Of a stretch of 64,000 nt of DNA, positions 20,338-63,386 are shown in pieces. The stretch is from an uncultured Gammaproteobacteria bacterium. GTDB taxonomy: Bacteria; Patescibacteriota; Patescibacteriia; UBA9934; GWF2-40-263. The notes under the pieces are model-generated. The model was not told the DNA's origin and did no database searches. It worked only from the letters and a program-made list of their open reading frames with translations. How positions within the stretch are numbered: the stretch's first letter is position 1; every line of letters begins with the position of its first letter. A program made the translations under genes and the position numbers. The DNA is taken from positions 9,033-73,032 of the forward strand of contig CAYNRK010000003.1 in NCBI GenBank assembly GCA_964399675.1, in the 5' to 3' direction.

Positions 20338-20347
20338 TTTTCTTCTT

Positions 20348-20486: not shown

Positions 20487-21131
20487 CTACTGCTTGGTGA
20501 GCGTGCCTTCCGAGACGTTGCCGTTGGAGGCCTCGAGCTTGTAGGTGATCAAGGACAGGTCGTCCGAAATCGTGCCTTCGAGCGTGACCCCCGGCTTCTC
20601 GCCGTAGAACGCGGCGCCGGTCACATGGACCATGACGTTGAGTCCCATGTTCATGAAGACCCTGTCACCGTCGAGACCGGTCTCGACTGCGCGCACGCTG
20701 TCGTTCGAGCTGTCGACGTACGCGCCGTTCGGAGCCAGGCCCCAGGAGCCTTCCTCGGTCCAGTTGAGCTCCACGACTGTTCCGTTGTCGTCGGCGTTGG
20801 GCACGTACTCGCGCGGGGCAAACAGGTGGATCGGGCTCTCGAGCTCGATCTCGACCTGGTCGTCGATCTTGACGACCTTGACCTCGCAGGTGTCGGTTGC
20901 CTCGCAGGCAACGTCTCCCTTGACCAGGAAGTCACCGACGATGCCCGCTGGGGCGTTGGCGTTGAGGGTGACCGTGAAGAGCGGCTCGCCCGTGTCCGGG
21001 TTGATGCCGTCCTGTCGGGCCTGCTCGTCGTGTCGAGCAGCCTCGTCGGCCTCGCTGTTGTCGAGATCCGCACCACACCCCAGAGCCAGGCAAAGGGGCA
21101 GCAGTGCGATGAGAAGAGTTCGCTTGTTCAT
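20487..21131 (-). CDS. lipoprotein (signal peptide + lipobox LALGCG), high-GC island gene
   Basis: MNKRTLLIALLPLCLALGCGADLDNSEADE...; RBS GGAG 7 nt upstream of the ATG at 21131. The three other ORFs overlapping this interval look like GC-rich frame noise. Confidence 0.6.
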   Translation of the reverse strand: MNKRTLLIALLPLCLALGCGADLDNSEADEAARHDEQARQDGINPDTGEPLFTVTLNANAPAGIVGDFLVKGDVACEATDTCEVKVVKIDDQVEIELESPIHLFAPREYVPNADDNGTVVELNWTEEGSWGLAPNGAYVDSSNDSVRAVETGLDGDRVFMNMGLNVMVHVTGAAFYGEKPGVTLEGTISDDLSLITYKLEASNGNVSEGTLTKQ

Positions 21132-21453
21132 CGCTTTACTCCGGTTTCTGCCCCGTTTCCTACTCCAGCCTTGTGCTGAAAGCAGGGCGCGGGTAAACAC
21201 ACTTCTGTATATATTACAAGGGTTTTTTTAAATTTTGTCAAGTCTAAATATGGGATCTTTGCGAATTTTAGGTAAATCGTAAAGAATTTTGTGGATATTC
21301 TCTGGATAAAATTTCAAACAAATTTTTTAAAAACAATCAAGCTTTCATTTAAAATTTTTCTTGGCTCTGATATATTGACATTAGGCGAGAAACGTGATAA
21401 AAAATCGCCTCGTTCCTTTCAACAAACAACCTACAGGAACGGAAGGGAGTAGT

Positions 21454-22398
21454 ATGAAAAACTTGCTGTGCCTCGCGCTTATGGCGCTCGCCCTGATTTG
21501 GGGTAGCACAGCGAGTGCTACCTGCAAGTCATCCACCATCATCGAGGAGCTCGCAGAAGCCGAAAGCAAAGGCGAGACGGCTTTTGCAGACATGGATCTG
21601 GACGGTCTGCGTGCTCAGGCAAAGAAAGCTCGTGAGATCCTCGCGTGTCTTTCCGAGCCGGTCAATTCAAAGCACGCGGCTGCGTTCCATCGTCTGATGG
21701 CACTCGAAGCGTTCACACATCAGAACGACGATCGTGTGATCGCTGAGTTTCACGCAGCTCGTAAGCTCGATCCCGGCTACCAGTTCCCAGAGGATGTGGC
21801 TGGTGAAGACCATCCGGTTCGCGAGCTCTACAAACGAGCCGCAACAGCCGAAGACGGTGAGCTGCAAACGGTCTACCCACCCAAGGGTGGGTACGCAACC
21901 GTTGGTGGTGTGCGTGGTGCTCCGCGTCCGGAAAAGACGCCGGTCATCATCCAGGTCTTTACCAAGCGTGGAAAGATCAAGGGGACGCACTACATCGAGT
22001 CAGGCAAGTCGCTTGGCAAACTCGGTAAGCCTCCGGTCAAGCTTGTGGCCAAGGTCATCCCACCTTTGCCACCGGAAGGCTGGGCAAAGCCGAATCGTTG
22101 GTACTACACTGCAGCAGCTTCGGCTGCTCTGGCTGGAGTTCTCTACGCTGCGGCACTTCAGCAGAAGTCGGAATTCGAAGACACAAGCGGGACTGACACT
22201 GCGTCGTCCGACAAGGACCTTGCAGGCTACAAGTCGCGCGCAAACGGATTGGGCTACGCTTCTGTAGCTCTTGGCAGCTTGGGTGTCATTGCCACTGGCA
22301 TTGGCTTTACCTTGCAGCTCAACTTCAGCGGAGACGAGAAGGCCACAAAGGTCTCGTTCACCCCAAGCATGGGCAGGGGGTTTGCCAATGTTCGATGA
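21454..22398 (+). CDS. secreted protein (signal peptide MKNLLCLALMALALIWGSTASA), high-GC island gene
   Basis: RBS GGGAGT precedes the ATG at 21454. AT-rich promoter-like TTGACA at 21377. C-terminal TM-like segment. The stop overlaps the start of the downstream kinase gene (ATGTTCGATGA). Confidence 0.6.
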   Translation: MKNLLCLALMALALIWGSTASATCKSSTIIEELAEAESKGETAFADMDLDGLRAQAKKAREILACLSEPVNSKHAAAFHRLMALEAFTHQNDDRVIAEFHAARKLDPGYQFPEDVAGEDHPVRELYKRAATAEDGELQTVYPPKGGYATVGGVRGAPRPEKTPVIIQVFTKRGKIKGTHYIESGKSLGKLGKPPVKLVAKVIPPLPPEGWAKPNRWYYTAAASAALAGVLYAAALQQKSEFEDTSGTDTASSDKDLAGYKSRANGLGYASVALGSLGVIATGIGFTLQLNFSGDEKATKVSFTPSMGRGFANVR

Positions 22399-24265
22399 TC
22401 CAGAAGTCCTGATGGGCATGATCCGAGCTCATGGTCGCTTTGAGCCGATCAAGATGGTTGGCGAAGGCGGAATGGGTACCGTGGTCAAGGTTCGCGATCC
22501 TCGCCTGAGGGCAATTCGTGCCATGAAGGTGATCAATCCGGACATGGCTGATCACGATCTGGTCAAGCGTCGGTTTGAGGCTGAGGCAGCCTTGACCGAC
22601 AAGGTGACACATCCCAATATCGTGCGCGTGTACGACATTGGTGAGCTCACACATCCTGACACCGGGATCGAGTTCTTGTACATTGTCATCGAATGGGTCG
22701 ATGGTGGTTCGCTTGCGGATCACATCGAGGCGTTTGGGGCAATGCCGGAACAACAGGCTCTTGCGGTCACGATCGCGATCCTGAATGGGCTCGGGTGTGC
22801 GCACGAAGCCGGTGTTATTCATCGCGACATCAAGCCGGACAACATCCTGCTTACTTCAGGGGAGGTCTCCAAGATCGCGGACTTTGGCATTGCTCAAGGT
22901 CAGGACGCTACTCACAAAACCCGGTCTGGTATCGCACTAGGAACCATTGGGTTCATGCCTCCTGAGCAGATGATCGACGCAGCTTCTGTGGACGCTCGCG
23001 CTGATCTCTACGCCGTAGGGATGACTCTGTGGAACATGCTTAGCGGCAAAAGGCCGCCGAGCGATAATCTGGTCTGGTATCTCAATTTCCTGAGCGAAGC
23101 TTGGGTCATGGAGGGAATCGATCACCAGCTGGTTGCAGTCCTCAAAAGGGCCTGTGCAGAAAAGCCGGCGGGTCGATACCAGAGCTGTGCAGAGCTTGTC
23201 CAGGTTCTCACACAAGCGCTTGGCTCGTTCGGCGCACTCAGTCAAGGCACCCCTCTTCTGGGCAGCATGCCTGAGATGGTGGTCGAGGCAACCGGCCTTG
23301 TTCCAGGTGTGGCCAGGATGGTGGCTGCAATCGATGCGGTTGATGACGACCTGCCGTTTGAGCCACCTGCTGGTTCGGTCAGGCTTCAGCCTTCAGGGGG
23401 ACAGGTCGACGCCACTGTTCGGAATCCTGCCACTGAGATAGCTGGATCCCCACCTCTTCTTGTCAGCAGCACACCTCCACCGAGCGTGAGTTCTCAGCCT
23501 AGTGTGCGCGCAGCAACAGATCCGCACAGGGATCTTGCGTACGCACACACCCACGTGGCTTCAGCAGACAGCGTGCCCAGCACTGGAACGCTTGCAGAAG
23601 CTGCTGGTGAGACCATTCGCAATGGTGACCTCGATGTGCCAGGCTCTGTCACCAAGGGGCGACGTTCAGCCGGAATCCTGGCTGTGGCAGCGCTTGCGCT
23701 GCTTGGTGGCCTGGCTTCGCTCGCGGTCTTCGGTATTCCGCGGCTCACCAGCGAGTCACCTGGACATGCTGCTACTCAGACTGATCCGCAGGTGACTCAG
23801 CCAACCGCGCCGGTTGCTCGTGCAGTCATCACACCACAGCCGGCAACACCTCTCGAAGAGGTGCCAAAGCCTGAGCGTCCATCAGTTGCATCTGGGTACG
23901 GTGCAAAGGTGGCGAGTGGCAAAGCACCAGAGATCAGTGTGGGGCCAAAGGAAGAGGTTCCCAAGCCTGCTTCAAAGGCAAAGAAGAAGGCCAGGAAGAA
24001 GCGCAAGAAGCGCAAAAAGGCCAAGGCAGCTGTTGAGGCAAAGGTCCGTGTTGGACTCAAGCTTCCAGCAAATGACCCGGCCAAGGTCTGGTTGGTTGGC
24101 AAAGCTGGTACGTCCAAGTTGCCGGCCAAGGTGCCTCCTGGCACTTACAAGGTCAAGGCCAAGTTCAAGGATCGGCCACCCAAGGTGGTCATCTCCTCAT
24201 ACACGGTTCAGGCCGGCAGCACGCCGCGCCTGAAGTGCTCATCCTCGTTTGCACGCTGCAAGTGA
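22388..24265 (+). CDS. Hanks-type Ser/Thr protein kinase with Pro-rich linker, single TM helix and Lys-rich C-terminal tail
   Basis: Gly-loop VGEGGMGTVVKV, catalytic HRDIKPDNILL, DFG (KIADFGIAQ). TM segment AGILAVAALALLGGLASLAVFG; KKKARKKRKKRKKAK tail. GC about 60%. Confidence 0.85.
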   Translation: MFDDPEVLMGMIRAHGRFEPIKMVGEGGMGTVVKVRDPRLRAIRAMKVINPDMADHDLVKRRFEAEAALTDKVTHPNIVRVYDIGELTHPDTGIEFLYIVIEWVDGGSLADHIEAFGAMPEQQALAVTIAILNGLGCAHEAGVIHRDIKPDNILLTSGEVSKIADFGIAQGQDATHKTRSGIALGTIGFMPPEQMIDAASVDARADLYAVGMTLWNMLSGKRPPSDNLVWYLNFLSEAWVMEGIDHQLVAVLKRACAEKPAGRYQSCAELVQVLTQALGSFGALSQGTPLLGSMPEMVVEATGLVPGVARMVAAIDAVDDDLPFEPPAGSVRLQPSGGQVDATVRNPATEIAGSPPLLVSSTPPPSVSSQPSVRAATDPHRDLAYAHTHVASADSVPSTGTLAEAAGETIRNGDLDVPGSVTKGRRSAGILAVAALALLGGLASLAVFGIPRLTSESPGHAATQTDPQVTQPTAPVARAVITPQPATPLEEVPKPERPSVASGYGAKVASGKAPEISVGPKEEVPKPASKAKKKARKKRKKRKKAKAAVEAKVRVGLKLPANDPAKVWLVGKAGTSKLPAKVPPGTYKVKAKFKDRPPKVVISSYTVQAGSTPRLKCSSSFARCK

Positions 24266-24285
24266 GAGATCGGGCACAACTCTCA

Positions 24286-24308
24286 GCGAGACTTCGGTCT
24301 CGCTTTTC
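24286..24308 (+). terminator. rho-independent terminator (agcgagac-ttcg-gtctcgct-TTTT)
   Basis: Perfect 8-bp stem with UUCG loop and U-tract, 20 nt after the kinase stop. Confidence 0.7.
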
Positions 24309-24385
24309 AATTACCCTCCGTCGCCCTTTGGGCTTTGATGGGCAAGCTTCACTTTTTTTGAGAAATCGGGCAATATAGGGGGCGT

Positions 24386-25645
24386 ATGATTGATTTAAAA
24401 CTTATTCTTGAGCAACCAGAAATGGTTGAAACTAATAACAAAAATAGAGGTATTGAGCTTGATGTTCAATCTGCTGTTAAGCTTGCAAAAAAACGATCTG
24501 TGCAAATGGAAGAGGTTCAGGTGCTTCGAACTCAAGCTAATGAGATTGCAGGACAAACTTCCAAAGCAAGCGATTCAGATCGCCCAGAACTTGTTAAAAA
24601 AGGAAAAGCGCTCAAGGCAGAGATTAAAATCGCTGAGACAGCACTTTCCAAAGTTGAAGAGGCTTTGAACAACGAACTTCTAAAATACCCAAACGTTTTG
24701 CGTGAGGATGTGCCAATTGGTAGGGATGAGTCAGTTAATGAGGTTATTGAAACTGTTGGCAAACCAACAGAACTTTCTTTTGAACCAAAAGATCATTTGG
24801 AACTTGGCGAGGCATTGGGAATTATTGATATGGAGCGTGCAGCAAAAGTTTCTGGAGCTCGGTTTGTGTATCTTAAAGGCGACGCTGTGCTGTTAGAGTT
24901 TGCGCTTGTTAATCTTGCGCTTGAAATTGCTACAAAGCATGGTTTTGTTCCTGTTATTCCTCCGCATCTTATTTCAACAAAAGCAATGGGTGCTATGGGA
25001 TATTTGGCACATGGTGGGGAAGAGGAGATCTATCATTTGAAAAACGATGACGCAGTGCTTATTGGAACGTCCGAGCAGGTGATTGGTCCAATGCATATGG
25101 ATGAAATTCTTGATGAAAAAAAGTTACCGCTTCGTTATGTTGGTTTTTCACCGTGTTATCGTCGTGAAGCTGGAAGTTATGGAAAAGATACGCGCGGTAT
25201 TTTGCGCATGCACCAATTTGATAAAGTGGAAATGTTTAGTTTTACTTCACCTGAAAAATCTGATGAAGAGCATGAGCTAATATTGTCTGTTCAAAAAGAA
25301 CTTATGGATGAACTAAAGCTTCCATATCAAGTTGTAAGACTAAGTTCTGGTGATACCGGTGCTCCGTCGGCTCGAACATATGATATTGAAACCTGGATTC
25401 CATCTCAAAAAACTTATCGAGAAACTCATTCAACTTCTAATACAACAGATTTTCAAACACGACGTCTTGGTACACGTATTAAGAAAAAAGGAAAAAACGA
25501 ATTTGCACATGCGCTTAATGGAACAGCTTTTGCAATTGGCAGAACATTGATTGCAATTCTTGAAAACAATCAACAAGAAGATGGTTCGGTTTTAGTGCCA
25601 GAGGTTTTGCAAAAGTGGATAGGAAAAGACAAGTTAGTTTCATGA
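24386..25645 (+). CDS. serS: seryl-tRNA synthetase
   Basis: N-terminal coiled-coil arm; class II motifs ...FSPCYRREAGSYGKDTRGILRMHQFDKVEMF...GRTLIAILENNQ. AT-rich, host-like codon usage. Confidence 0.93.
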   Translation: MIDLKLILEQPEMVETNNKNRGIELDVQSAVKLAKKRSVQMEEVQVLRTQANEIAGQTSKASDSDRPELVKKGKALKAEIKIAETALSKVEEALNNELLKYPNVLREDVPIGRDESVNEVIETVGKPTELSFEPKDHLELGEALGIIDMERAAKVSGARFVYLKGDAVLLEFALVNLALEIATKHGFVPVIPPHLISTKAMGAMGYLAHGGEEEIYHLKNDDAVLIGTSEQVIGPMHMDEILDEKKLPLRYVGFSPCYRREAGSYGKDTRGILRMHQFDKVEMFSFTSPEKSDEEHELILSVQKELMDELKLPYQVVRLSSGDTGAPSARTYDIETWIPSQKTYRETHSTSNTTDFQTRRLGTRIKKKGKNEFAHALNGTAFAIGRTLIAILENNQQEDGSVLVPEVLQKWIGKDKLVS

Positions 25646-25714
25646 TGTTATACACACAATTATTTCCGGATTTTGGCGGACAAAAAAACAAACTAAGTTC
25701 AGCTAAAAAAAGGT

Positions 25715-25743
25715 ATGACAAAACTTGTCATGTCGAAATGACA
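25715..25743. promoter_or_regulatory. operator-like alternating inverted repeats ATGACA-N5-TGTCAT-N6-ATGACA
   Basis: atgacaaaacttgtcatgtcgaaatgaca, seen directly in the intergenic region upstream of the M23/T4SS-like gene block. Confidence 0.4.
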
Positions 25744-25772
25744 TAAACAAAAAAATCGCTAAAATTAGCCAA

Positions 25773-25801
25773 AAATCACTTGACTTTCAAGTGATTTTTT
25801 G
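25773..25801 (+). terminator. rho-independent terminator (aatcacttg-actt-tcaagtgatt-TTTTT)
   Basis: 9-10 bp stem followed by a U-tract, downstream of serS. Confidence 0.6.
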
Positions 25802-26001
25802 ATGTCCTGAAATTAGACAGGAGGAAAAAAGCTTGTCGCCGGCCAAAAACACCTGTCATGTGCGAGGGGAAATCGCATGGCAAATAAGAACGATTTTTCT
25901 TCGGCATCGTGGATGTTTGGCTGATAAGGACTATGTCCTAAGTGGGACTCACTTGGAAGGGAGCAACCTGTGAGTCAATCCCGCATTTTTTACGAAGGTG
26001 C

Positions 26002-26041
26002 GGGGTCAACCACGTCGCTCGCGAGCGACGTGGTCAACCCC
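26002..26041. promoter_or_regulatory. 40-bp near-perfect palindrome (ggggtcaacc-cacgtcgctcgcgagcgacgtg-gtcaacccc) with a third GTCAACC copy inverted at 26082-26088
   Basis: The 22-bp core cacgtcgctcgcgagcgacgtg is exactly self-complementary. It lies in the GC-rich leader about 95 bp upstream of the M23 peptidase start. Confidence 0.5.
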
Positions 26042-26136
26042 ACTCGGATCGGTGCGCACAGGCCTAGTGCACCGTCCGAGGTGGTTGACCAAAAAGGTCA
26101 GTCTGGCTCGATTGTACCTTACAACAGGAGAGAGGC

Positions 26137-28125
26137 ATGAACACGCTCAGAATTCGGTTTTTCTTTTACTTCCTCTGTGCTCAGGCCTTCTTGGCGTTTG
26201 TGATGATCATGATGGCCTGCACAGAGTCGGTGGATGTCTCCTCAAGAGAGCATTCATTCGAAGGTGGTGGTGTCTACAGGACAACGATCCATCTTCCCGG
26301 TTCGCCAGCAGTGGAGCTTCAGTGCGTGCAAGGTGTTGGCGGTTCCTACTCGCACACTTCTCGATCGACCTACTACGATATCGATCTTGACACCTCGAAC
26401 ATCCGTGATGAGAGCGTGTACGCGCCGGCTGATGGGATCGCTTTCGTTCATATGCACAACTCGCATATGAACTTTGGAAAGCATGTGAACATTGACCTGG
26501 GCGATGGCACGTACGTGGTGATTGCGCACATGTCAAAGATCGTGGTCTCTGACAACGCTGAAGTGGCAACCGGACAGCTACTAGGGCTTGAAGGATGCAC
26601 TGGATCCTGCACAGGCGATCACATTCATGTCGGTCTTCACAGAGGGAATGCGGCTCAACCTGCGCAGTATGGTGAGTCTGTTCCTGTTCGATACCATGTA
26701 GCGGATAACACAGAGCCGCGCGGACACAAGCCGCTTGATGTTGAAGAGACGGTCTGTGGTCTCCGAGCATTCGGAGACAACCAAAACGGGCAGTTCTATA
26801 CCTCTGCACTTGACGTAACGCTTTTCCATCCAAACGGCACGCTTGTGAAGACGTCAAACAACGCACGTGTGTATCTCATTGACAACGGTCAATTGCGACA
26901 CATTGCAAACGAACGAACGTTTCACTCATACGGCTACAGTTTCATGGACGTTGCCATCATTTCAGATGAAGAACGCTCATGTTACCCCGAGGGTCCCGTG
27001 CTTGACCTTGTGGGTATGGTGGATGCTGTTACGGATGACAACGATCAGATTTGGCTACTGGTTGGTCCAAGGCAAAGGAGCGACCGGTATCGTATCCGCG
27101 TCAGAAACGAAGCGTTTGAGCAGGTGCTTGAGTCCTGGGGAGTCAACGTTGGTCTTCAAGGACCTCGACAGGTTCGCTCAAATGCACGCGAGCTTGCTCA
27201 GTGGCCTGTGAGATCCGGAACAGCTCGATTCCGAGATGGAAGTCTTGTCAGAGAGCAAGATCGTTCGGATGTCTATCTGATCTCAGACTCTGTTGCGCTT
27301 CCGATTGCGAACTGGCAGACGTATCTGCGTCTTGGGTTTTACGATCGACAAGTGCTCATGGTTGGAAACGGTGAGCTAGCACAGGTTCAGCGAGCAGCTG
27401 GCAATTGCCTGGTGGGCAGCAACTGCTTGGACGGATACAACATCAGTGTGTGCGGAAACGACTTGAGGCTGGATCTCAGGCATGAGTCAGACACCAGCGG
27501 CGATCTACAAGTTGCTGGATTTCGTGAAAACGAAAACGAGGAACACAATGGCGAAAAAGAAGAGCAAGAAGGTGATGGGGAGAGTGAGGAGGAGGTGGTT
27601 GCAGGTACCACTCTGGACGAAAGCGAGGATGAAGAACGTGAGATTGAAGCAGGTGTAACTCCTCTTTGCAACGGCCAGGACGCATGCCTACACGACAACG
27701 ACGGTGATGACAAGGCCGAGTTCCTTCTGATGCGAAATCATCAGTGGTTGAATCCGGACTTGCACGATGAGTTCGCGGTTGTTTACGGCAACGGAGGTTG
27801 CTTTAACAATCGTTTCGAGCCAGGTGACGTTTTCTATCCAAGAGACGGTTACTACTGGATCGATTTCACTGTCTTTGACAGACCGTGCAGCAGTGAGCTC
27901 ACACTCATCTCTGTGGTCGGCACTGACGGCGAAGATCCACGTCCTTCAATGGACAACTGGTACTGGTGGCAGAATGCACCGTTCTGTTCGCAAGGCTCCA
28001 TGCTTTGCAATCTCATGAACAACGGTGTGCCATGGGAAGAGTGGTTGGTTTCGGTTGCCTGGCATCCGGATCAAGGCCTCTTGCCAAACGGCAACGGCTT
28101 CACACGAAATACTCAGCTTCACTGA
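26137..28125 (+). CDS. secreted M23-family (LytM-like) peptidoglycan metalloendopeptidase, high-GC gene with acidic E/D-rich region
   Basis: Signal peptide. HxxxD (SHTSRSTYYDIDLD) and HxH (GDHIHVGLH) zinc-site motifs typical of M23. RBS AGGAGAGAGG. GC about 55%, against about 38% in flanking genes. Confidence 0.7.
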   Translation: MNTLRIRFFFYFLCAQAFLAFVMIMMACTESVDVSSREHSFEGGGVYRTTIHLPGSPAVELQCVQGVGGSYSHTSRSTYYDIDLDTSNIRDESVYAPADGIAFVHMHNSHMNFGKHVNIDLGDGTYVVIAHMSKIVVSDNAEVATGQLLGLEGCTGSCTGDHIHVGLHRGNAAQPAQYGESVPVRYHVADNTEPRGHKPLDVEETVCGLRAFGDNQNGQFYTSALDVTLFHPNGTLVKTSNNARVYLIDNGQLRHIANERTFHSYGYSFMDVAIISDEERSCYPEGPVLDLVGMVDAVTDDNDQIWLLVGPRQRSDRYRIRVRNEAFEQVLESWGVNVGLQGPRQVRSNARELAQWPVRSGTARFRDGSLVREQDRSDVYLISDSVALPIANWQTYLRLGFYDRQVLMVGNGELAQVQRAAGNCLVGSNCLDGYNISVCGNDLRLDLRHESDTSGDLQVAGFRENENEEHNGEKEEQEGDGESEEEVVAGTTLDESEDEEREIEAGVTPLCNGQDACLHDNDGDDKAEFLLMRNHQWLNPDLHDEFAVVYGNGGCFNNRFEPGDVFYPRDGYYWIDFTVFDRPCSSELTLISVVGTDGEDPRPSMDNWYWWQNAPFCSQGSMLCNLMNNGVPWEEWLVSVAWHPDQGLLPNGNGFTRNTQLH

Positions 28126-33958: not shown

Positions 33959-36043
33959 ATGCCACTTGATATAGGACAAGTAAAAAAAGCCATGCCAGCA
34001 CCGGCTCCAAAGAAACCAGTTAAATTAAAGCCGGAAGAGGTAAAGGTTAAGCAAGAAAAGCTCGTTTTAGAAGAGGAGCGAATTTATCGTCGGGGTGTTG
34101 TAACTGTTAAAGATGTTATTGCTCCTGCGGCATTTCAAGTCAATCCAAGGCACCTTTTACTTTCAGGTGTTTATGTGCAAACGCTTTTCATTATTACTTA
34201 CCCGCGTCACATTGGTATTGGTTGGGCAACGCCGCTTATTAATTTGAATAAAACTTTTGATGTTGCAATGTTTTTTTATCCACTCAAAGCAAACATTGTA
34301 CTCAAACAGCTTCAGAAAAAAGTTGGTGTGTTTGAGGCAAAGGTTCTGGGTGATGCTGAAAAAGGTGCGCCGCGTGATCCAATTGCTGAGACTGCATTAC
34401 GTGACATTGAGGCGCTTCGCGATGCACTTACGCAAGGGATTGAACATTTTTTCCAATTTGCTTTTTACATTACAATTTACGCAAAGAGTCAGGACGAACT
34501 TGATAAATATGCACAAGAAGTTGAAGCGCTGTTTGGGAGCAAGTTGATTTATACAAAGACTGGTTTTTATCAAACCGAACAAGGATTTAATTCCACAATC
34601 CCGCTTGGTAATGATGAGATCATGATTACCTATAACATGAACACATCGCCAATAGCAGCATCCTTCCCGTTTGTGAGTTCTGATGTTTCTTCTGATGATG
34701 GAATTTTGTATGGGATTAATAGACACAACAACTCGCTTATCTTGTTTGATCGGTTTAGTTTGCAAAACGCTAACTCGGTTGTGTTTGCTACTTCTGGTGC
34801 TGGAAAGTCCTATGCTATTAAACTTGAGATTTTGCGAAGCTTGATGATGGGAACAGATGTGATTGTGATTGATCCTGAAATGGAATATAAAGATTTGTCT
34901 GACGCAACCGGAGGAACATATATTAATGTGTCACTTGCTTCGGATGCAAAAGTTAATCCGTTTGATTTGCCGCGCGCGGTTGGAGAGGGTACAAAAGTTG
35001 AAGATATAATTAGAAGCGCTGTTATTACTCTTAAGGGTCTTTTGCGTATTATGATCGGAAAGCCGCAAGGGGCTTCCGGCACTCTTGGTTTCACACCAGA
35101 GGAAGATTCCATGCTTGACCAAGCGCTTATTGAGACATTTGCGAAAAAAGACATCACACCTGATATTACGGATTTATCCAATGTAGAAGCTCCGATTTTT
35201 TCTGATTTTCAAGATGTGCTTGAAGGTATGGAAGGGGCTGATGATTTAGTAGCACGGTTGCGCAAATATACTGAAGGTACATTTTCCGGACTTCTTAATT
35301 CTCCAACAACTGTTGAGATGGATAATCAGCTTGTAGTCTTTTCTGTGCGAGATTTAGAAGATGAGCTTAGGCCTGTTGGAATTTATTCCATTGTTAATTA
35401 TATTTGGAATGTTGTGCGTTCTGTGCGAAAGAAGCGAATCATGGTTATTGATGAGGCTTGGTGGCTGATGCAACAGGAAGATTCTGCTAAGTTTATTTTT
35501 GCACTTGTAAAGCGTTGTAGAAAATACTTCATGGGAGTCACAACAATCACGCAAGATGTTAATGACTTTTTGCGCTCGCCTTATGGTCAGGCGATTGTAA
35601 CAAACTCCTCGCTCCAAATTTTGCTTAAGCAATCTACGTCCGCGATTGATCTCGTTCAAAAGACGTTTAATTTAACGGATGGAGAAAAGTATTTACTTTT
35701 GGAATCAGGTATTGGAGAAGGAATTTTCTTTGCCGGACAAAAGCACGCGGCAATTAAAATTATTGCTTCTTATACTGAAGATCAAATTGTTACAACAAAT
35801 CCGGCACAGCTTTTGGAGATTGAAGAGGCAAAGAAAGAGTTTGAGGCGCAGCTTGAAGAGAAGGGTGGAGGAGAGGTAGCCCCAGGCTTTAGCCTGGGCG
35901 AAGATGTCGAAGGGGAGGAAAAGATTACAGTTAATGAAGCTCAAAAAGAAGCGCAAGCACAAGACGCTGCTTCAGCACTTTTGTCACAAGAAGATGCCGG
36001 CAAAGCCGAAGCAGATAAAATTCGCGATTCACTTACCATATGA
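33959..36043 (+). CDS. VirB4/TraC-like conjugative-transfer ATPase, C-terminal ATPase portion
   Basis: Walker A VFATSGAGKSYAIK; Walker B RIMVIDEAWWLM (DEAW); 694 aa. Together with the preceding ORF, about 930 aa. Confidence 0.75.
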   Translation: MPLDIGQVKKAMPAPAPKKPVKLKPEEVKVKQEKLVLEEERIYRRGVVTVKDVIAPAAFQVNPRHLLLSGVYVQTLFIITYPRHIGIGWATPLINLNKTFDVAMFFYPLKANIVLKQLQKKVGVFEAKVLGDAEKGAPRDPIAETALRDIEALRDALTQGIEHFFQFAFYITIYAKSQDELDKYAQEVEALFGSKLIYTKTGFYQTEQGFNSTIPLGNDEIMITYNMNTSPIAASFPFVSSDVSSDDGILYGINRHNNSLILFDRFSLQNANSVVFATSGAGKSYAIKLEILRSLMMGTDVIVIDPEMEYKDLSDATGGTYINVSLASDAKVNPFDLPRAVGEGTKVEDIIRSAVITLKGLLRIMIGKPQGASGTLGFTPEEDSMLDQALIETFAKKDITPDITDLSNVEAPIFSDFQDVLEGMEGADDLVARLRKYTEGTFSGLLNSPTTVEMDNQLVVFSVRDLEDELRPVGIYSIVNYIWNVVRSVRKKRIMVIDEAWWLMQQEDSAKFIFALVKRCRKYFMGVTTITQDVNDFLRSPYGQAIVTNSSLQILLKQSTSAIDLVQKTFNLTDGEKYLLLESGIGEGIFFAGQKHAAIKIIASYTEDQIVTTNPAQLLEIEEAKKEFEAQLEEKGGGEVAPGFSLGEDVEGEEKITVNEAQKEAQAQDAASALLSQEDAGKAEADKIRDSLTI

Positions 36044-51340: not shown

Positions 51341-51519
51341 GTGTCTCGCACACTGCGTCGTTGCGAGCCCCCTTTCGTGAAAAGGGGCGAAGCAATCTCC
51401 GTATAGAATTATGGGGGACAGTCACGTTGTATATAATTTCGGCAGTACTCACTTTGTTCCGTGCTGGCGAAATTATATACAACGTACCTGTTGTGGAGAT
51501 CCTGATGGTTCGTCGGAGG
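51341..51519. repeat. composite palindromic repeat cluster in the clpC upstream/5' leader region (modules A-H-G-B-M3)
   Basis: gtgtctcgcacactgcgtcgttgcgagc + cccctttcgtgaaaagggg + cgaagcaatctccgtatagaatt + 22-bp inverted repeat acgttgtatataatttcggcag...ctggcgaaattatatacaacgt + gttgtggagatcctg + ggttcgtcggagg. Confidence 0.85.
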
Positions 51520-51529
51520 ATTAATGGTG

Positions 51530-55734: not shown

Positions 55735-55763
55735 TTGACAAAATCGTTGTTTTGTGGTAGTAT
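55735..55763 (+). promoter_or_regulatory. strong sigma70-like promoter TTGACA-17nt-TAGTAT driving the candidate sRNA
   Basis: ttgacaaaatcgttgttttgtggtagtat, read directly. Confidence 0.6.
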
Positions 55764-55769
55764 TTCACC

Positions 55770-56003
55770 GTTGGCTTCGGCTGACCCTTGTTGTTGGATG
55801 GCCCCAGGTTTACCCAAAACCTGGCGCATTGCGGGCAACCGTGATCCACAACTTGGTTTTTCCTATACTACCTACTTGTCCGTGCAACTTCCTGGCTCCT
55901 TGCCGCAAGCGTTCCGTGCTCTACCCACGAGCCGCAACGCAACTAAAAAGCGGCCCTACTACTCCCCCATTGACTAGTAAAGTTGATGGGGGCACTTTTT
56001 TTA
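55770..56003 (+). ncRNA. candidate structured small RNA (~230 nt) bounded by promoter and terminator; identity unknown
   Basis: GC-enriched (~50%) relative to the surroundings. Internal hairpins (ccaggttt-accc-aaacctgg etc.). Ends with cccccattgac-tagtaa-agttgatggggg + TTTTTTT. No convincing ORF; the ORF-track 55754..56323 reading frame is low complexity. Confidence 0.45.
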
Positions 56004-56020: not shown

Positions 56021-57604
56021 TTAACTAAACAACCAGTTTTCATCATGCAATCCAACTGCTTTGAACTGGTCAGTCATTTTTTTCTTGTCATCATCACCCT
56101 GCATGAAATCCAAATAGCATTCCTTAAACGCTCTTTGCATCACTGTCTTTGGATCAGATTGGGCTGTTGTTTGTTTCTTGGTTTTTGCATTTCTAAGTCG
56201 CTTTGCATCAAGGAAATCCATAAGAGCCAACAAGTTGTCTCTTGTAAACACATAAGGTTCTGGCCTTCCTTTTCCAATGGTTTTGTCGTGAGCCATTTTT
56301 TCTATTTGTGCATGGAATTTTGAAAGGGCAATAATCATTTCTTTAAATCTTGGAATGCGTTTAAGAAGTTTATATGTTGGGTCTGCATCATCTCCTTGAT
56401 ATTCTTGTCCGTCAATATTAACTTTTGGTTGAGTTCCAAAAGCAGCAAAGTTCATCATTGCCTCATAACTTTTTTCATCCGGTCTTTCCACAAAAAGATA
56501 ACCAGTCCAACGGCGTTTTTCAGCAGGAGTAAGAGGTTCGCGGCCAGCATATGATGATGGGTTTGATGCTCCAAAGACGCGGAAATCTGGATGCATTTCA
56601 TGATCAGCCCCTTCACCAACAGACTCTCCTTTATTTTCTGAAAGAACAAGCCATGGTTTTCGTTCAAGCGCAGAGTTCATTCGCTCACGAACAGAAGCTT
56701 CACTAAGCATGAGCTCGTCACAAAGAAGCCATGCACCTGTTTTCATTGCTCTTGGTAACATCCCATCTTGCCATCGCCACTCAGGAACCTGGATTCCTTC
56801 TTCTGAAGCAACCATTTGGGATTCTGTAAGAGACAGTTCACGTTGTTCACCTGCTGCAGTATTAATAATAGCTTGTGATTTTGCTGACAAGTTTTCAACG
56901 TGCATTAAAAGTTTTTCAAATTCTAATTGAACTTGCCCATCGTTTGGTACAAATTTTCCAATAAGCTCGGATGTATCTGTTTGTCCTGAAAAATTTAAGC
57001 GCAATAGTTCATGATTTGTGATTGCTGCTAAATATTCAATTGGGCTTGTTTTTGCAACTCCGGTTTCTCCTTCCAACAACAGAGGCTTTTTCAGATCAAC
57101 AGCTGTTGCGATTTTGTGAAGAGTTTTCAGTGTGTGTTCGTCCAAAGTAAAGTGTTCAAACTTTTTCATTGATGGAACCATTGGTCCGCCATCTGGGTTG
57201 TATGGAATTTCAGTGTCAAGAACATAAACAACACCTTCGGCTTTATTAATTTCAATTGGAAGTGGAGTTTCTCGTTTTTTTTCAACTGCCATTGGAACAC
57301 CTTCTTCTTTTAGTGGTTTGACAAATAATTTTCCTTTGCGTTCACCCGGTTTGGTATCAATGGTTACTTGTACATCATAAGGAACACCAGGGGTTGGTTC
57401 AAAATTATAATCTGGATCTGGGAGTAAAATTTTGTGCTCAGGAGTACCTGAAACAAAAAATTCAGTAGTTGCTTTTCCTCTGCGTCTTGACCTTCTTTCC
57501 CTACTTTCAAAAACAACACCTGTAAGCACATTTCCAACAGTTGCTTCTCTGCGTTCTGTGGATCCTGTGCCAGGCTCTCGGTCTGGTCTTTCTGGGTCAA
57601 CCAT
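56021..57604 (-). CDS. MoxR/AAA_5-family AAA+ ATPase with ~170-aa N-terminal extension
   Basis: Walker A LLLEGETGVAKTS; Walker B LLCDELMLSEA (DE-I/L-N-x-A type); 527 aa. Last gene of a three-gene minus-strand operon. Confidence 0.7.
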   Translation of the reverse strand: MVDPERPDREPGTGSTERREATVGNVLTGVVFESRERRSRRRGKATTEFFVSGTPEHKILLPDPDYNFEPTPGVPYDVQVTIDTKPGERKGKLFVKPLKEEGVPMAVEKKRETPLPIEINKAEGVVYVLDTEIPYNPDGGPMVPSMKKFEHFTLDEHTLKTLHKIATAVDLKKPLLLEGETGVAKTSPIEYLAAITNHELLRLNFSGQTDTSELIGKFVPNDGQVQLEFEKLLMHVENLSAKSQAIINTAAGEQRELSLTESQMVASEEGIQVPEWRWQDGMLPRAMKTGAWLLCDELMLSEASVRERMNSALERKPWLVLSENKGESVGEGADHEMHPDFRVFGASNPSSYAGREPLTPAEKRRWTGYLFVERPDEKSYEAMMNFAAFGTQPKVNIDGQEYQGDDADPTYKLLKRIPRFKEMIIALSKFHAQIEKMAHDKTIGKGRPEPYVFTRDNLLALMDFLDAKRLRNAKTKKQTTAQSDPKTVMQRAFKECYLDFMQGDDDKKKMTDQFKAVGLHDENWLFS

Positions 57605-57607
57605 ATA

Positions 57608-58051
57608 TTATTCAAGTCTTAAAATTGATGAAATAAGGGGTTGTAGCTGAATATCAGTTGGTTCAACATTAACAAGTAAAATAAGAAGCAGCGCTCCTTT
57701 TGGAAGAGGGTTTATTATAGTTGGCTCTTCATGTCCTGCAAGATGTACGTTCAAATGTCCTTCTTTAATGTTATGTAATTGACTGAGAATTTTTCCAGGC
57801 AATTGGCTTGTGATTACAAGTGCAGTAGCTTGGGCTTTCTCAAGCCTGCGAGCAAGAACTTCAAGCAGTTCATCAGGATGTTGGTCATCTTTGATTTCAA
57901 GCAAACTTGCACCAGTAGTAATTAGCAAGGCTTTTACAGCTTCTTTGTGTTCGTTTGGTGTGATAATTGTTCCAAACGCAAATCCTTCACCACGTTTCAT
58001 GGTAAGGCCATCTAAATAGTCTTTTAGATATTCTTTTTGTTCTTCATTCAT
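57608..58051 (-). CDS. hypothetical 147-aa protein between the VWA and AAA+ genes
   Basis: ORF tightly spaced: 6 nt to the upstream gene, 3 nt to the downstream gene. Confidence 0.45.
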   Translation of the reverse strand: MNEEQKEYLKDYLDGLTMKRGEGFAFGTIITPNEHKEAVKALLITTGASLLEIKDDQHPDELLEVLARRLEKAQATALVITSQLPGKILSQLHNIKEGHLNVHLAGHEEPTIINPLPKGALLLILLVNVEPTDIQLQPLISSILRLE

Positions 58052-58057
58052 AGTTTT

Positions 58058-60340
58058 TTACCAATCGCTTTCATCATACCATGGGTCATCATCTTCGTCT
58101 CTTTCCTTTCTTTCGCTTCTTTTTCTTTCGAGTTCTGGTTTATTGGCTTCAAGCATAGCTTGAAATGATTCTGGTGAGATGATCATGCCTTGCACAATTT
58201 TACCCAATTGTTCTGCCAGGTCTTTTACTGAAAGGTTTGGAAATGCAACAGGATAATAATCTTCTACATGCTCTGTTCCTGAGCCAAGTCCAAGTCCGGC
58301 GAGTTTCTGATTGGTTTCAGTAGTTATGGTTTCAACTGCATCATCTAAATCTTCTGCTGTACTATGTCTTCCCGCAGGTTGTCCGTCTGAAAGAACTGTA
58401 AGGAATTTATGCTTTGCAACTTGTTTTTTCAAACGCTTTGACGCTTCAAGAAGACAAGGGCCATCATCATTATATCCTGATTGATTGTGCCCACCAGGAT
58501 TTTCACTATTGACTTCTTTTAACATTCCTGCCATTCTGTTTCTTATTTCATCTGTTAGTTCTTCATCAAAATTTTTAAAAGGTATGATTTCATCTTGGAA
58601 ACCAAGGATTTCACATTTGATACCAAGTCGACTTAATACTTCTGCAAGTATAATTACCCCCTTGAATGTTTCTCCAATTGTTCCTGGGTCATCATCATAA
58701 CCGGCCATTGACCCAGACAGATCAACTAAAATTGTAAAGGCAAAATCATTAACTTTTGGGATGTCTTTTGATTCCCAAAATTTTGCCGGCAAATCTTTGG
58801 CCCCGGCTGCTCTTGCTGCAATAAAATTGAAAAGCGCGCGAATGTTTGGTTTTGTACCAGAGCTTTTAAGTGTTGTCTTTTTCTTACGCTGCGGGTAAAA
58901 AACTTGATATAGTTCGCGGTGTAGTTGATCTTCAAATTCTCTGACTTGCTCGTAATTCTCATCGTAAACGCTTTTTTGATCAAGAGCCGCTTGTTCTTCT
59001 TCAATCAGTTCGCGCAATGCTTCTGCGTCTGCTTCATCTTGTGCGCGCTGTTTTGCCTCTGCTTTTGCGCTTGCTTGTTTGGCATCCTTGTCTGCAACTG
59101 CAGCATGAGTTGGAAGAGGACTATCTTCCATTGCTCCTTCAAACAATTTTGTAATAATGTCTTCAATTTTTTCAAGCGCCTTTTTAATAAGTTTTTCAAT
59201 CTTTTCTCTTTGTTCTTTTTCCAGCTCATCAAATATTTCTAATAGCTTTTCTTCAAGCTCTTCTGAAAAAGTATCAGCAGGTACAGGAAGTTTGTTGTAG
59301 CCACCAACAATATCTGCAAAAGTATCAATTTGATCAAGCATTACACTTGAGGTATTTGGTTTGTCATCTATAAGACTAAGTTCTTCGTTGGTTTTTTGTG
59401 CATGGCCTTCTGCCTTTTTTCGAATAACAGGATACAGTTTGTGCAAAAGTTCATAGAAAAGTTCCAGTGGCAACTCAGTAAGCCGATCTCTTTCCTCTCC
59501 TGTACGATCTTCAACAGGTGTTCTATCAATTGTTCTGGATTGTTCAATAAGAAAAAGACTTACTTGTCTGAGTCTTTCGGTTTTCATGTCTTGTTCTGCA
59601 AGTTCTTTAACATGCGGAAAAATTTCTTTGTAAGTAGCTTTGTAACGTTCTTTTGCCAGCGCGATCTTTTTTTCATCATCGTCCTTTGTGTTTGGAATCT
59701 CACGTTCTATTCTTTCAACAGTAGTTCGAATTGCTTCATAATGTTCAAGTGCAATAGAACTTTTTGCATTCCGTTGTTCTTCAATGTAATGCGGATCATG
59801 AACAATTATTCCGTCTAATTGAGCAAAGTGCGGCACATAACCAAGAAGATCTAGCGCGCTTCCTTCTAGTTCGCCTTCTCTTGCAAGCGTTCGTCGCATT
59901 TGATCAACCCAAAGCCCTGCTCCAGCAAACCTATCTCTTACAACCTGATCTGTTGGACGTTCTTCAACAGCTCGTAAAAGAGAAACTAATCCAAGTTCTT
60001 TGGCTGCTTCTTCAGGGAAAAAAGAAAAGTCTGTAATAAGAGCATGACCGGCTTCGTGTGCAATGCTTCCCAAAAGCACTCCTTCTTCTTCGGTTCCAGC
60101 ACGTTCCAGAACCTCTTCTGGGTCAAAGAAAATTTCACGTGTTGAAGTATCGATGTACCATAATTTATCTCCGCCCTTTCCTTGTTTAACAACAACACCT
60201 TTTTCACCGGAAATAGTTTGCGCAAGTGCCTGGAGCCGACCTTGCCAACTTCGAAGAGTTGCTTTTTCTTCATCAGTAAATACACGCGGCTCAGAAGCCT
60301 CGCCAATTCTGTCTCTTGTTTCAGTGCTTGTTGGTGTCAT
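58058..60340 (-). CDS. VWA-domain protein with N-terminal HExxH (zincin-like, DUF2201_N-type) region and long coiled-coil linker
   Basis: N-terminal SIAHEAGHALI (HExxH). C-terminal VWA/MIDAS motif ILVDLSGSM...(DxSxS)...SDGQP. 760 aa; E/K-rich middle. Confidence 0.7.
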   Translation of the reverse strand: MTPTSTETRDRIGEASEPRVFTDEEKATLRSWQGRLQALAQTISGEKGVVVKQGKGGDKLWYIDTSTREIFFDPEEVLERAGTEEEGVLLGSIAHEAGHALITDFSFFPEEAAKELGLVSLLRAVEERPTDQVVRDRFAGAGLWVDQMRRTLAREGELEGSALDLLGYVPHFAQLDGIIVHDPHYIEEQRNAKSSIALEHYEAIRTTVERIEREIPNTKDDDEKKIALAKERYKATYKEIFPHVKELAEQDMKTERLRQVSLFLIEQSRTIDRTPVEDRTGEERDRLTELPLELFYELLHKLYPVIRKKAEGHAQKTNEELSLIDDKPNTSSVMLDQIDTFADIVGGYNKLPVPADTFSEELEEKLLEIFDELEKEQREKIEKLIKKALEKIEDIITKLFEGAMEDSPLPTHAAVADKDAKQASAKAEAKQRAQDEADAEALRELIEEEQAALDQKSVYDENYEQVREFEDQLHRELYQVFYPQRKKKTTLKSSGTKPNIRALFNFIAARAAGAKDLPAKFWESKDIPKVNDFAFTILVDLSGSMAGYDDDPGTIGETFKGVIILAEVLSRLGIKCEILGFQDEIIPFKNFDEELTDEIRNRMAGMLKEVNSENPGGHNQSGYNDDGPCLLEASKRLKKQVAKHKFLTVLSDGQPAGRHSTAEDLDDAVETITTETNQKLAGLGLGSGTEHVEDYYPVAFPNLSVKDLAEQLGKIVQGMIISPESFQAMLEANKPELERKRSERKERDEDDDPWYDESDW

Positions 60341-60416
60341 AAGTCAACTTCCATTTTACTTGTAAAAGACCTTCGAGTAAATTTCTTGCCCAAAAGAGAG
60401 AAAACCGTTATCATTT

Positions 60417-61539: not shown

Positions 61540-61978
61540 CACCCTGCGTCGTTGCGAGGCCTGTTAGACGGGTCGAAGCAATTTCCGTGTCTCGCACACT
61601 GCGTCGTTGCGAGCCCCCTTTCGTGAAACGGGGCGAAGCCCGTCCGAACGGCCGCAAGGCCGGGCGGGCAATCTCCGTAAAGAATTCCCTCGTGTCCTGC
61701 ACCTTGTGTCATTGCGAGCGAAGCGAAGCAATCTTCGTAAAGAATTATGGGGGACAGTCACGTTGTATATAATTTCGGCAGTACTCACTATCGTTCCGTG
61801 CTGGCGAAATTATATACAACGTACCTGTTGTGGAGATGCTGGGGGTTCGTCGGAGAATTGCGTAGGACAGTCACGTTTTGTCATCTCGACCGAGGCGCTA
61901 GCCGAGCGGAGAGATCCCGAATATCAGAGATCCCTCGGCTTCGGCCCGTCGGACGGGCCTTCGCTCGAGATGACACAA
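61540..61978. repeat. large composite palindromic repeat cluster (~440 bp; at least 3 tandem A-type units + B unit + C-type unit) filling the rseP-pheS intergenic region
   Basis: ctgcgtcgttgcgaggc..., gtgtctcgcacactgcgtcgttgcgagccccctttcgtgaaacgggg..., tgtcattgcgagcgaagcgaagcaatcttcgtaaagaatt, B-unit 22-bp inverted repeat, ggttcgtcggaga, then the C-type unit tgtcatctcgaccgagg...cgctcgagatgaca. Confidence 0.9.
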
Positions 61979-63057: not shown

Positions 63058-63368
63058 ATTGTCATCTCGACCGAGGTTCCTGCCGAGCGGAGAGATCTCG
63101 AAGATTGCTTCGTAGAGGATTTTGGGTGACAGTCACGTTGTATATAATTTCGGCAGTACTCGCGTGGCTCCGTGCTGGCGAAATTATATACAACGTACCT
63201 GTTGTGGAGATCCTGAATGTTCGTTGGAGGATTGTGAAAGGCTTTTGGGATCATGCCATTTCCCCGCGTCGTTGCGAGCCCCCTACGTGAAAAGGGGCGA
63301 AGCAATCTCCGTAGAGAATTATATACAACGTACCTGTTGTGGAGATGCTGGGGGTTCGTCGGAGGTTT
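63058..63368. repeat. composite palindromic repeat cluster (C-unit, B-unit, A/H-unit, partial B/M3) between pheS and pheT
   Basis: attgtcatctcgaccgagg...gagatctcgaagattgcttcgta; gacagtcacgttgtatataatttcggcag...ctggcgaaattatatacaacgt; gcgtcgttgcgagccccctacgtgaaaagggg; ...ggttcgtcggagg. Confidence 0.9.
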
Positions 63369-63386
63369 AAAAAAAGTAAAAGCGAT

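Follow-up and report, generated by a model that had tools for sequence, protein, structure and literature searches.

A Patescibacteria operon encoding a midasin-related AAA+ ATPase, a CobT-like adaptor that keeps a zincin motif, and a predicted pseudo-AAA+ protein

A three-gene operon for a proposed motor-adaptor machine

Positions 56,021-60,340 of a 64,000-nucleotide (nt) stretch of contig CAYNRK010000003.1 (the window), from an uncultured bacterium of the Patescibacteria (candidate phyla radiation, CPR), carry three minus-strand genes that we read, with modest confidence, as encoding a protein-remodelling motor with its adaptor, of the CobST/NorQD/midasin type and perhaps linked to proteolysis. 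The set of components that distinguishes this system comprises a single-module midasin-like motor, a CobT-like adaptor with a kept zincin site and a free pseudo-AAA+ protein. Coordinates given below for features of the three genes are all on the minus strand.

The first-pass annotation of this DNA had proposed an operon encoding proteins of 760, 147 and 527 amino acids (aa), and the corresponding open reading frames (ORFs) were confirmed exactly at 58058-60340, 57608-58051 and 56021-57604, respectively. The intergenic gaps of 6 nt and 3 nt make a single transcription unit very likely, and a weak promoter-like site found by consensus scan (TTTACT-17-TAAAAT, 60353-60381) lies 13 nt before the first start codon. 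Identical copies of the three genes were called on 16 public metagenome-assembly contigs, the longest of 264 kb, and homologues of the 760-, 147- and 527-aa proteins are numerous, indicating that these are genuine genes and not chance ORFs. The HEAGH, MIDAS (site of metal ion-dependent adhesion), Walker A and Walker B motifs that had been listed for them were all found by translation.

The motor: a single-module ATPase close to midasin

As judged from its sequence, the 527-aa motor protein (56021-57604) is a single-module AAA+ ATPase of the AAA_5 (dynein/midasin-related) group within the helix-2-insert/MoxR clade, in agreement with the class first given to it. Its match to Pfam AAA_5 (PF07728; 5e-14, 52.9 bits against a cut-off of 22) was accompanied by weaker matches to AAA_3 and dynein AAA_7; all 18 of the 18 aligned homologues scanned also matched AAA_5, and 11 of them matched dynein AAA_6 in addition. 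The Walker A motif GETGVAKTS (residues 179-187, 57044-57070) and the Walker B pair D296-E297 (56714-56719) are intact, and G179, T181, K185 and T186 of the former and both residues of the latter are invariant in the family alignment (A1), as are the sensor-1 Asn and the arginines R355 and R365. With these residues invariant, the 527-aa protein should be competent as an ATPase.

Among proteins of solved structure, midasin modules are much closer to the ATPase in sequence than bacterial MoxR-type ATPases are. In a single-sequence search of the PDB, midasin (Rea1/Mdn1) was the best match by a wide margin, with a total of 2.4e-90. Every midasin AAA module aligned to the ATPase, AAA4 scoring highest (65.5 bits, query residues 165-368), while CbbQ reached 25.8 bits and NorQ and CobS were marginal. 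When the family profile was used instead, midasin scored 538 bits over 7 stretches (~77 bits per module), compared with 37 bits for CobS, 30 for CbbQ, 29 for NorQ and 28 for MoxR (2r44). The unbroken alignment of residues 165-368 with Rea1 1307-1513 spans an insert of ~55 aa between Walker A and Walker B (56780-56947), where midasin AAA4 also carries one. Some members of the family are without the ~55-aa insert, as indicated by split alignments in loci L044-L051 and L075-L083.

This resemblance, including the insert at the AAA4 position, speaks for an explanation in which the system would act in a midasin-like release of an assembly factor from a large complex (ribosome, secretion or pilus), with the zincin motif of the adaptor being incidental. 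Midasin has an acidic (D/E-rich) region before its MIDAS domain, which the net-acidic linker before the MIDAS of the adaptor parallels, and the HEAT-repeat partners of the ATPase in other clades suggest scaffold interactions. Against such a role, the VWA domain of the adaptor is nearer to those of CobT and NorD than to the midasin MIDAS domain, links to ribosomal or assembly genes did not exceed chance, and the rarity of the family (122 confirmed matches in 185,579 species genomes) argues against a core assembly function. Midasin also joins six AAA modules, a linker, the D/E-rich region and the MIDAS domain in one polypeptide, whereas the operon encodes a single-module 527-aa ATPase and places the VWA domain on a separate protein; the operon system is bacterial, and midasin has, to our knowledge, no zincin domain. 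Release of an assembly factor is an explanation that we hold to be quite unlikely.

Outside the AAA+ core, the N-terminal region of the ATPase (residues 1-140, 57185-57604) had no Pfam match and, in alignment A1, was composed of a beta-rich, lineage-specific part (residues 1-100) followed by a family-wide conserved pre-AAA segment (residues 104-150). The extension, at first put at ~170 aa, is actually ~100-145 aa long. A C-terminal extension of ~150 aa had also been described; the region is there (residues 371-527, 56024-56494) and carries a conserved IGK...YVFTR(R/D) block in alignment A1, but by analogy with CobS it is read here as a normal lid (small) subdomain of an AAA+ protein plus extra helices. 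In CobS, the lid is enlarged, carries extra C-terminal sequence and docks CobT_N (bioRxiv 10.64898/2026.07.21.739949). The lid of the ATPase would likewise be the likely docking site for the adaptor N-domain, as in the CobS_S-CobT_N crystal complex.

The adaptor: a CobT-like protein with a HExxH...E site

The 760-aa protein (58058-60340) has a predicted M48-like zincin N-domain, a charged linker, a CobT-type VWA/MIDAS domain and an acidic tail, and with the first three of these it appears to be built like CobT, whose N-domain and VWA domain are joined by a disordered linker of ~90 residues (bioRxiv 10.64898/2026.07.21.739949). The VWA domain (residues 516-725, 58166-58795) matched Pfam CobT_C (PF11775; 2e-6, 28.1 bits against a cut-off of 21), and its profile, searched against the PDB, scored 96 bits with the CobT VWA domain, 56 with NorD and 47 with the midasin MIDAS domain. 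The MIDAS is intact, with DLSGS at residues 540-544 (58709-58723), D652-G653 and T689 in the translation. Among 56 sequences, D540, S542, S544, D652 and G653 were conserved at 100% and T689 at 96%, which bears out the C-terminal MIDAS VWA domain first described for this protein. The score of the adaptor against the CobT equivalog (TIGR01651) was 20.7 bits against a cut-off of 759.

The N-domain (residues ~20-215, 59696-60283) had no Pfam match in the window's protein, and its fold was predicted by an AlphaFold2 model of residues 1-275 built on a 7-sequence alignment. In the model (predicted local distance difference test score, pLDDT, 84; predicted TM-score, pTM, 0.80), a long helix is followed by a three-stranded sheet and nine further helices, an arrangement that may be compared with that of the M48C-like CobT_N, which has a helix, a three-stranded sheet and ~8 helices (bioRxiv 10.64898/2026.07.21.739949). 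The HEAGH motif (H95, E96 and H99; residues 95-99, 60044-60058), a zinc-binding/catalytic motif, lies on the modelled helix 86-102, and E126 (59963-59965), the candidate third zinc ligand, lies on the helix that follows (118-137), giving the predicted domain a zincin (gluzincin) topology. The zincin-like HExxH site proposed for this protein is in keeping with all of these observations.

Amongst structures in the PDB, the minigluzincins abylysin, selecase and jannalysin ranked first in a Foldseek search with the N-domain model, at a non-significant level (E 0.5, probability 0.9). The same search of BFVD, a set of predicted viral structures, returned at the top the N-terminal parts of phage CobT/VWFA proteins of 600-800 aa (E 5e-5 to 1e-3), with SprT-like and M48 peptidases further down the list; additionally, 3 of the 46 family members scanned showed weak SprT-like Pfam matches. 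The suggested assignment to DUF2201_N/DUF2201 (PF13203, PF09967) was not supported, with no match at E <= 1 in the window's protein and neither family among those listed for the 46 members at E <= 0.1.

H95, E96, H99 and E126 are invariant in a 46-sequence alignment (A2) and a 42-sequence alignment (A6) spanning several phyla. Over all 57 family sequences, H95 was kept in 86%, E96 in 95% and H99 in 100%, the first His being replaced in some members from Myxococcota. A HExxH motif plus a Glu on a zincin fold is a hallmark of peptidases, and the invariance of the HExxH...E pattern in these alignments suggests that the N-domain is a working peptidase. The N-terminus and the extra domains had been called atypical. 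The retained HExxH...E is indeed unusual, but the M48-like fold itself is standard for CobT-type adaptors.

The linker between the two domains (residues 216-515, 58796-59695) was described at first as an E/K-rich coiled coil of ~250 aa. With 22% acidic and 17% basic residues it is a charged region, whose centre (residues 260-470) is net acidic, and it is mostly helical, with a helix at 222-272 in the model; prolines break it up, and a continuous coiled coil is at most a possibility. Its length and sequence vary among homologues, with a 'LPVPxDK(L/F)S' motif kept in close relatives. The acidic C-terminal tail (58061-58165, ...DEDDDPWYDESDW) varies among close homologues and is a possible ATPase-contact element by analogy with the C-terminus of NorD (PMC13036017).

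The third gene: a predicted pseudo-AAA+ protein

The 147-aa product of the middle gene (57608-58051), which had been left as an unknown, is by its predicted structure a degenerate AAA+ core, a pseudo-ATPase. Its family comprised 49 representatives among 1.84 billion protein cluster representatives, 47 of them 140-176 aa long and two shorter. An AlphaFold2 model built from the alignment of these 49 (pLDDT 97.2, pTM 0.90) shows a five-stranded AAA+ core in which helix alpha0 stands at the N-terminus and a beta-hairpin separates alpha3 from beta4. The 50 matches listed by Foldseek against the PDB were solely AAA+ ATPases, including RuvB (3e-5, TM-score 0.63-0.68), NSF, clamp-loader delta, papillomavirus E1, NorQ, CbbQ and dynein, and the best of them had query-normalised TM-scores of 0.6-0.68. 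The Walker A motif (P-loop) is missing, the beta1-alpha1 loop being one residue long ('TPN'; strand 25-31, helix 33-45); Walker B is also missing, as beta3 and the residues after it read ALVITSQ with no DE ending, and the model has no lid. It is the combination of an AAA+ core with the loss of both Walker motifs that points to a pseudo-ATPase.

The AAA+ fold of the 147-aa protein was recognised by structure alone. A marginal match to HtpG in a profile search of the PDB (E 0.04) was treated as chance, and the conserved 'CR(L/I/V)' near the C-terminus of the family was rejected as an arginine finger, its Arg being present in ~60% of the aligned members by eye and located in strand beta5.

The pseudo-AAA+ gene lies between the VWA and ATPase genes in all six of the six loci having all three (L004, L005, L006, L007, L019 and L027). 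In the contig-truncated locus L013 it stands directly upstream of the ATPase gene, and in L028 a similar ORF of 157 aa occupies its position, as judged by eye.

Inactive AAA+ modules have precedents. Dead AAA+ modules sit in BchD and in clamp-loader (delta) assemblies, and in the Mg-chelatase BchI-BchD an active AAA+ subunit works in one machine with an inactive AAA+ module and a VWA domain. BchD carries its dead module fused to a linker and a VWA domain, whereas that of the operon is a free, lidless protein of 147 aa; the operon also is without a BchH/ChlH partner and had no Mg_chelatase family matches. The 147-aa protein would be unable to bind nucleotide and, by comparison with BchD and clamp-loader delta, would most probably join or cap the ATPase assembly in a regulatory or structural capacity.

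Family distribution and locus types

One genome per GTDB species was scanned (185,579 species genomes), giving 122 confirmed matches, from which 80 loci were kept, and the adaptor homologues were taken from the ORFs of these 80 genome loci. A word-indexed search with the full 760-aa protein gave 6 matches and one with a concatenated query of the 147-aa protein and the N-domain gave 2; it is suspected that the charged linker filled the candidate list in the full-length search. With phmmer, a VWA partner having both the N-domain and the VWA domain was found within 3 kb of the ATPase gene in 57 of the 80 loci; BLAST clustering added another 8, and most of the remaining loci were on truncated contigs. 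The linkage of the ATPase and VWA genes is near-obligate.

Such loci occur in phyla that include Patescibacteria, Myxococcota, Verrucomicrobiota, Planctomycetota and Acidobacteriota, and their arrangements differ. Loci of the Patescibacteria (CPR) type have the order VWA, pseudo-AAA+, ATPase, as in the window. In Myxococcota, an ATPase of ~900-1000 aa with a ~550-aa N-terminal extension is followed by the VWA gene. In Verrucomicrobiota and others, a weakly HEAT-like protein of ~720-820 aa precedes the ATPase and VWA genes, and in Verrucomicrobiota and Planctomycetota the same position is taken by an unrelated small protein of ~150 aa. Finally, loci L015, L017, L018 and others have the order VWA, HEAT-repeat protein of ~700 aa (HEAT_2, 1e-29 to 1e-36), ATPase. 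No homology was detected among the N-terminal extension of the ATPase, the ~150-aa third-gene proteins of Verrucomicrobiota and some of the C-terminal extensions of the ATPase.

HEAT-repeat third genes encoding proteins of ~700-800 aa were located at 5644-7725 in L017, 5710-7758 in L018, 5564-7666 in L038 and 5556-7703 in L074, with HEAT_2 matches of up to 7.5e-36. In the CobSTN complex, the alpha-solenoid domain VI of CobN has the largest interface with CobT (bioRxiv 10.64898/2026.07.21.739949). The HEAT-repeat proteins of other clades recall this domain by analogy and may be a client-binding platform or an effector.

A tandem form was also observed. Protein P0110 (740 aa; L084, 4116-6338 of a Logan contig from SRR17843154) has two tandem AAA modules of the ATPase family and matched Pfam AAA_5 twice together with the midasin lid model AAA_lid_7; the gene after it (6411-7457) encodes an N-domain with the same HExxH...ED.R motif. 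On this sequence evidence, the concatenation of midasin-like modules appears to be already present in bacteria.

In public databases, the proteins of this family are named solely 'AAA family ATPase', 'MoxR-like ATPase' or 'hypothetical protein', and our literature searches found no description of the ATPase-adaptor family.

Comparison with CobST and other AAA+/VWA pairs

The system shares with CobS-CobT an adaptor with a predicted M48C-like N-domain, a long charged linker and a CobT_C-type VWA domain with MIDAS, the adaptor gene adjoining that of an AAA_5-type ATPase. It differs in having no CobN and an extra pseudo-AAA+ gene, in equivalog scores far under the cut-offs, and in an ATPase whose profile scores 37 bits with CobS and ~77 bits per midasin module. 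The operon adaptor also keeps an invariant HExxH...E; the CobT paper mentions no active site in CobT_N (bioRxiv 10.64898/2026.07.21.739949). Equivalogs of NCBIfam were likewise missed by the ATPase: it scored 34.2 bits against 266.8 for GvpN (TIGR02640), 14.8 bits (E 0.012) against 558.55 for CobS (TIGR01650), and far below the cut-off for MadB.

The NorQ-NorD and CbbQ-CbbO pairs resemble the operon system in combining an AAA+ hexamer with one VWA adaptor composed of an N-domain, a linker and a MIDAS domain, and gave weak but significant sequence matches. Their scores are much below those of midasin and CobT, the operon is without CbbQ_C, and the operon N-domain differs in its fold and in its peptidase motif. 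No matches to RavA, ViaA, NorQ/NorD or CbbQ/CbbO (CbbQ_C) families were found in Pfam and NCBIfam, and no genes for NOR (nitric oxide reductase), Rubisco or gas vesicles were present near the operon or among the flanking ORFs of related loci. Scores below the equivalog cut-offs, together with the lack of a metabolic neighbourhood, exclude orthology to RavA-ViaA, NorQD, CbbQO and CobST; the first-pass annotation had named orthology to a housekeeping pair of this kind as the finding that would have spoken against its proposal.

The likeness to CobT raises the possibility of a metal-insertion chaperone or chelatase-type machine, in which the pair would load a metal into a metalloprotein and HExxH...E would keep the metal for a short time and not catalyse proteolysis. 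In its VWA domain and its general architecture the adaptor is closest to CobT, the nearest matches of the ATPase in PHROGs are phage CobS-like proteins labelled 'porphyrin biosynthesis' (8e-23), and many characterised AAA+/VWA pairs of the clade insert metals (PMC13036017; bioRxiv 10.64898/2026.07.21.739949). This explanation is unlikely given that no CobN/ChlH-type family was found in the window's ten largest other ORFs or in the 148 flanking ORFs of related loci, that no metalloenzyme gene is conserved in the 80 loci, that the equivalogs of CobS and CobT are missed by a wide margin, and that HExxH with a Glu is a peptidase hallmark. CPR lineages, additionally, have sparse biosynthetic capacity. 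The earlier statement that MoxR-VWA pairs act as chaperone or insertion machines stands as far as the class of remodelling machines is concerned, but its metal-insertion variant is left with no CobN-like or metalloenzyme partner.

CobT/CobS-like pairs are widespread in phages, and one of them was viewed for comparison. In Pseudomonas phage nickie (L085, MG018927.1, 49981-53382), cobT encodes 694 aa with an extremely acidic G/D/E linker and cobS encodes 408 aa; both lie between DNA ligase and DnaE in a replication module, with no cobalamin-pathway gene among the 8 annotated genes of the 8.6-kb stretch viewed. This CobT, the sole phage CobT examined, differs from the operon adaptor in having no HExxH, and the CobS scored 22 bits against the ATPase family profile. 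A phage origin of the ATPase was discarded: no tblastn match was found in 50,697 phage records, the family has no relatives in IMG/VR (2.9 million viral contigs), and phage CobT-like genes were matched by the VWA domain alone, at 25-28% identity.

Genomic neighbourhood and the question of defence

In the lineage of the window, the operon is flanked by RseP, PheS and PheT on one side and by TyrRS, phosphomannomutase, LemA, HtpX and ClpB on the other, and the same gene order is found in L004, a metagenome-assembled genome of Candidatus Uhrbacteria that is the nearest syntenic genome. RseP, HtpX, LemA and the ClpB/ClpC-type ATPase are protein-quality-control genes, a neighbourhood that speaks for a protein remodeller. 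The window also encodes GroEL, RecG, RadA, aminoacyl-tRNA synthetases and a VirB4/TraG-like ATPase. Among the 148 immediately flanking ORFs of the related loci, no Pfam family occurred more than twice.

These data bear on the proposal, made at first pass, that the operon is an NTP-dependent conflict or anti-phage system, in which an invader would be detected by the ATPase and VWA proteins, with the zincin domain as effector protease. Ternary MoxR-vWA conflict systems have been described in which rare metallopeptidase domains take the vWA effector position (Kaur, Burroughs, Iyer & Aravind 2020; PMC7159879), and the operon shares with them an AAA+ protein of the same clade, a vWA protein and a variable third gene. 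The patchy phyletic distribution and the varying genomic context, which suggest horizontal mobility, as well as the architecturally related CobT/CobS pairs in phages, are also consistent with this proposal. However, PADLOC gave no significant match for any of the three window proteins, its models being such as may miss some ternary MoxR-vWA systems, and only sporadic single matches without enrichment of defence genes among the 148 flanking ORFs. No VMAP, effector-associated domain or toxin partner was seen, the third gene being a pseudo-AAA+ or HEAT-repeat protein, and the ATPase family is without relatives in viral contigs or phage records. The operon sits in a syntenic housekeeping block (aminoacyl-tRNA synthetases, RseP, HtpX, ClpB), and its HExxH is conserved and not diversifying. 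Altogether, these observations make a conflict system improbable.

Proposed mechanism and its standing

Several findings weigh against a motor-adaptor remodeller coupled to proteolysis. No sequence relative of the N-domain turned up when the PDB was searched by profile, and Foldseek matches to solved structures back its zincin fold weakly (E 0.5). Some Myxococcota adaptors have lost the first His of HExxH, and canonical CobT uses the same fold purely for docking (bioRxiv 10.64898/2026.07.21.739949), so that the HExxH motif could serve metal binding or structure instead. For the 147-aa protein, alignment with the ATPase family by hhalign gave a probability of 1%, with no sequence-level link. 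The quality-control neighbourhood is common to just one related genome (L004), no neighbouring gene is conserved across the 80 loci, with no other family in more than 4 of them, and no conserved neighbour gene points to a client.

A remodeller of this type is the reading that we retain. The identity of the domains, the integrity of their motifs, the linkage of the genes and the spread of the family are observed, whereas the geometry of docking, a peptidase activity, the part played by the pseudo-AAA+ protein and a protein client are inferred; the mechanism may be sketched by analogy with better-known machines. In the CobSTN complex, CobT_N binds the CobS lid, the VWA domain lies on the ring face, and CobN is held between both CobT domains (bioRxiv 10.64898/2026.07.21.739949); in NorQD, ATP-driven rotation of the VWA domain stretches the linker (PMC13036017). 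The 527-aa protein would form an ATP-hydrolysing AAA+ hexamer, on which the adaptor would dock, its M48-like N-domain contacting the lid and its VWA domain lying against the face of the ring, as in CobSTN. The MIDAS metal would capture an acidic residue of a client protein, and ATP-driven motion of the VWA domain relative to the N-domain would stretch the charged linker and the bound client, as in NorQD. Because HExxH and the Glu are invariant, the client, or the adaptor itself, would probably be cleaved at the N-domain, and the whole would then constitute an ATP-dependent, MIDAS-targeted metalloprotease assembled in trans.

Known tasks of AAA+/VWA pairs are the insertion of metals (CobST, NorQD), the repair of Rubisco (CbbQO) and the maturation of ribosomes (midasin). 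An intact zincin site in an adaptor suggests that remodelling can be coupled to proteolysis; it also gives a hint of true peptidase ancestry for the docking domain of CobT. This family would further add a third subunit of its own, a dead AAA+ core that stands free, and the retention of the operon in small Patescibacteria genomes implies that it is useful to the host cells.

The similarity to midasin modules is the strongest that we noticed for a bacterial ATPase with a solved relative. Together with the tandem modules of P0110, the similarity scores against solved structures mark the family as a candidate bacterial source of the midasin motor, and a prokaryotic origin of the midasin and dynein motors becomes more directly testable through the ATPase family and its tandem form. 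In the boldest version of this idea, midasin would have its free-living bacterial equivalent in this family: a single-module motor, duplicated in tandem in some bacteria, would act with a separate adaptor that bears an acidic linker, a MIDAS domain and a working M48-like protease, and the family would represent the prokaryotic stock from which the midasin and dynein motors came; we give this version little credence. Were it true, the family would stand as a new class among ATP-dependent proteases, one that is assembled in trans, and as the source of these eukaryotic motors.

Other features of the window

A candidate small RNA was located on the plus strand (55735-56001), flanked by TyrRS and by the 3' end of the ATPase gene. 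It has a near-consensus promoter (TTGACA-17 nt-TAGTAT with an upstream TG), then ~200 nt of GC-richer non-coding DNA, and a strong intrinsic terminator with a 12-bp stem (55964-55992) and a T run; the fold has a z of -3.2. No Rfam match was obtained for it, and no obvious counterpart was seen at the corresponding position of L004.

A dispersed intergenic repeat of ~135-250 nt is present in at least 3 copies (51341-51524, 61587-61861 and 63059-63370), whose parts are 88-98% identical and each of which contains a hairpin with 31-nt arms that are 87% complementary; it looks like a REP-like (repetitive extragenic palindromic) or MITE-like (miniature inverted-repeat transposable element) element. 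Two of the copies, 10.3 kb apart, flank the operon-bearing HtpX...RseP block, but the synteny with the Uhrbacteria locus speaks against a mobile cassette.

Elsewhere in the window, a plus-strand ORF of 3226 aa (10657-20337) had no Pfam match at E <= 1e-5 and encodes a giant protein of a kind often seen in Patescibacteria (CPR) genomes. Patches with a GC content of 0.52-0.58, against a background of 0.39-0.42, occur at ~20000-28000 and overlap the genes for a Ser/Thr protein kinase (22271-24265) and a protein with an M23 peptidase domain (26137-28125); the VirB4/TraG-like ATPase is encoded at 33959-36043, and the patches may be horizontally acquired DNA or DNA related to type IV secretion or pili.

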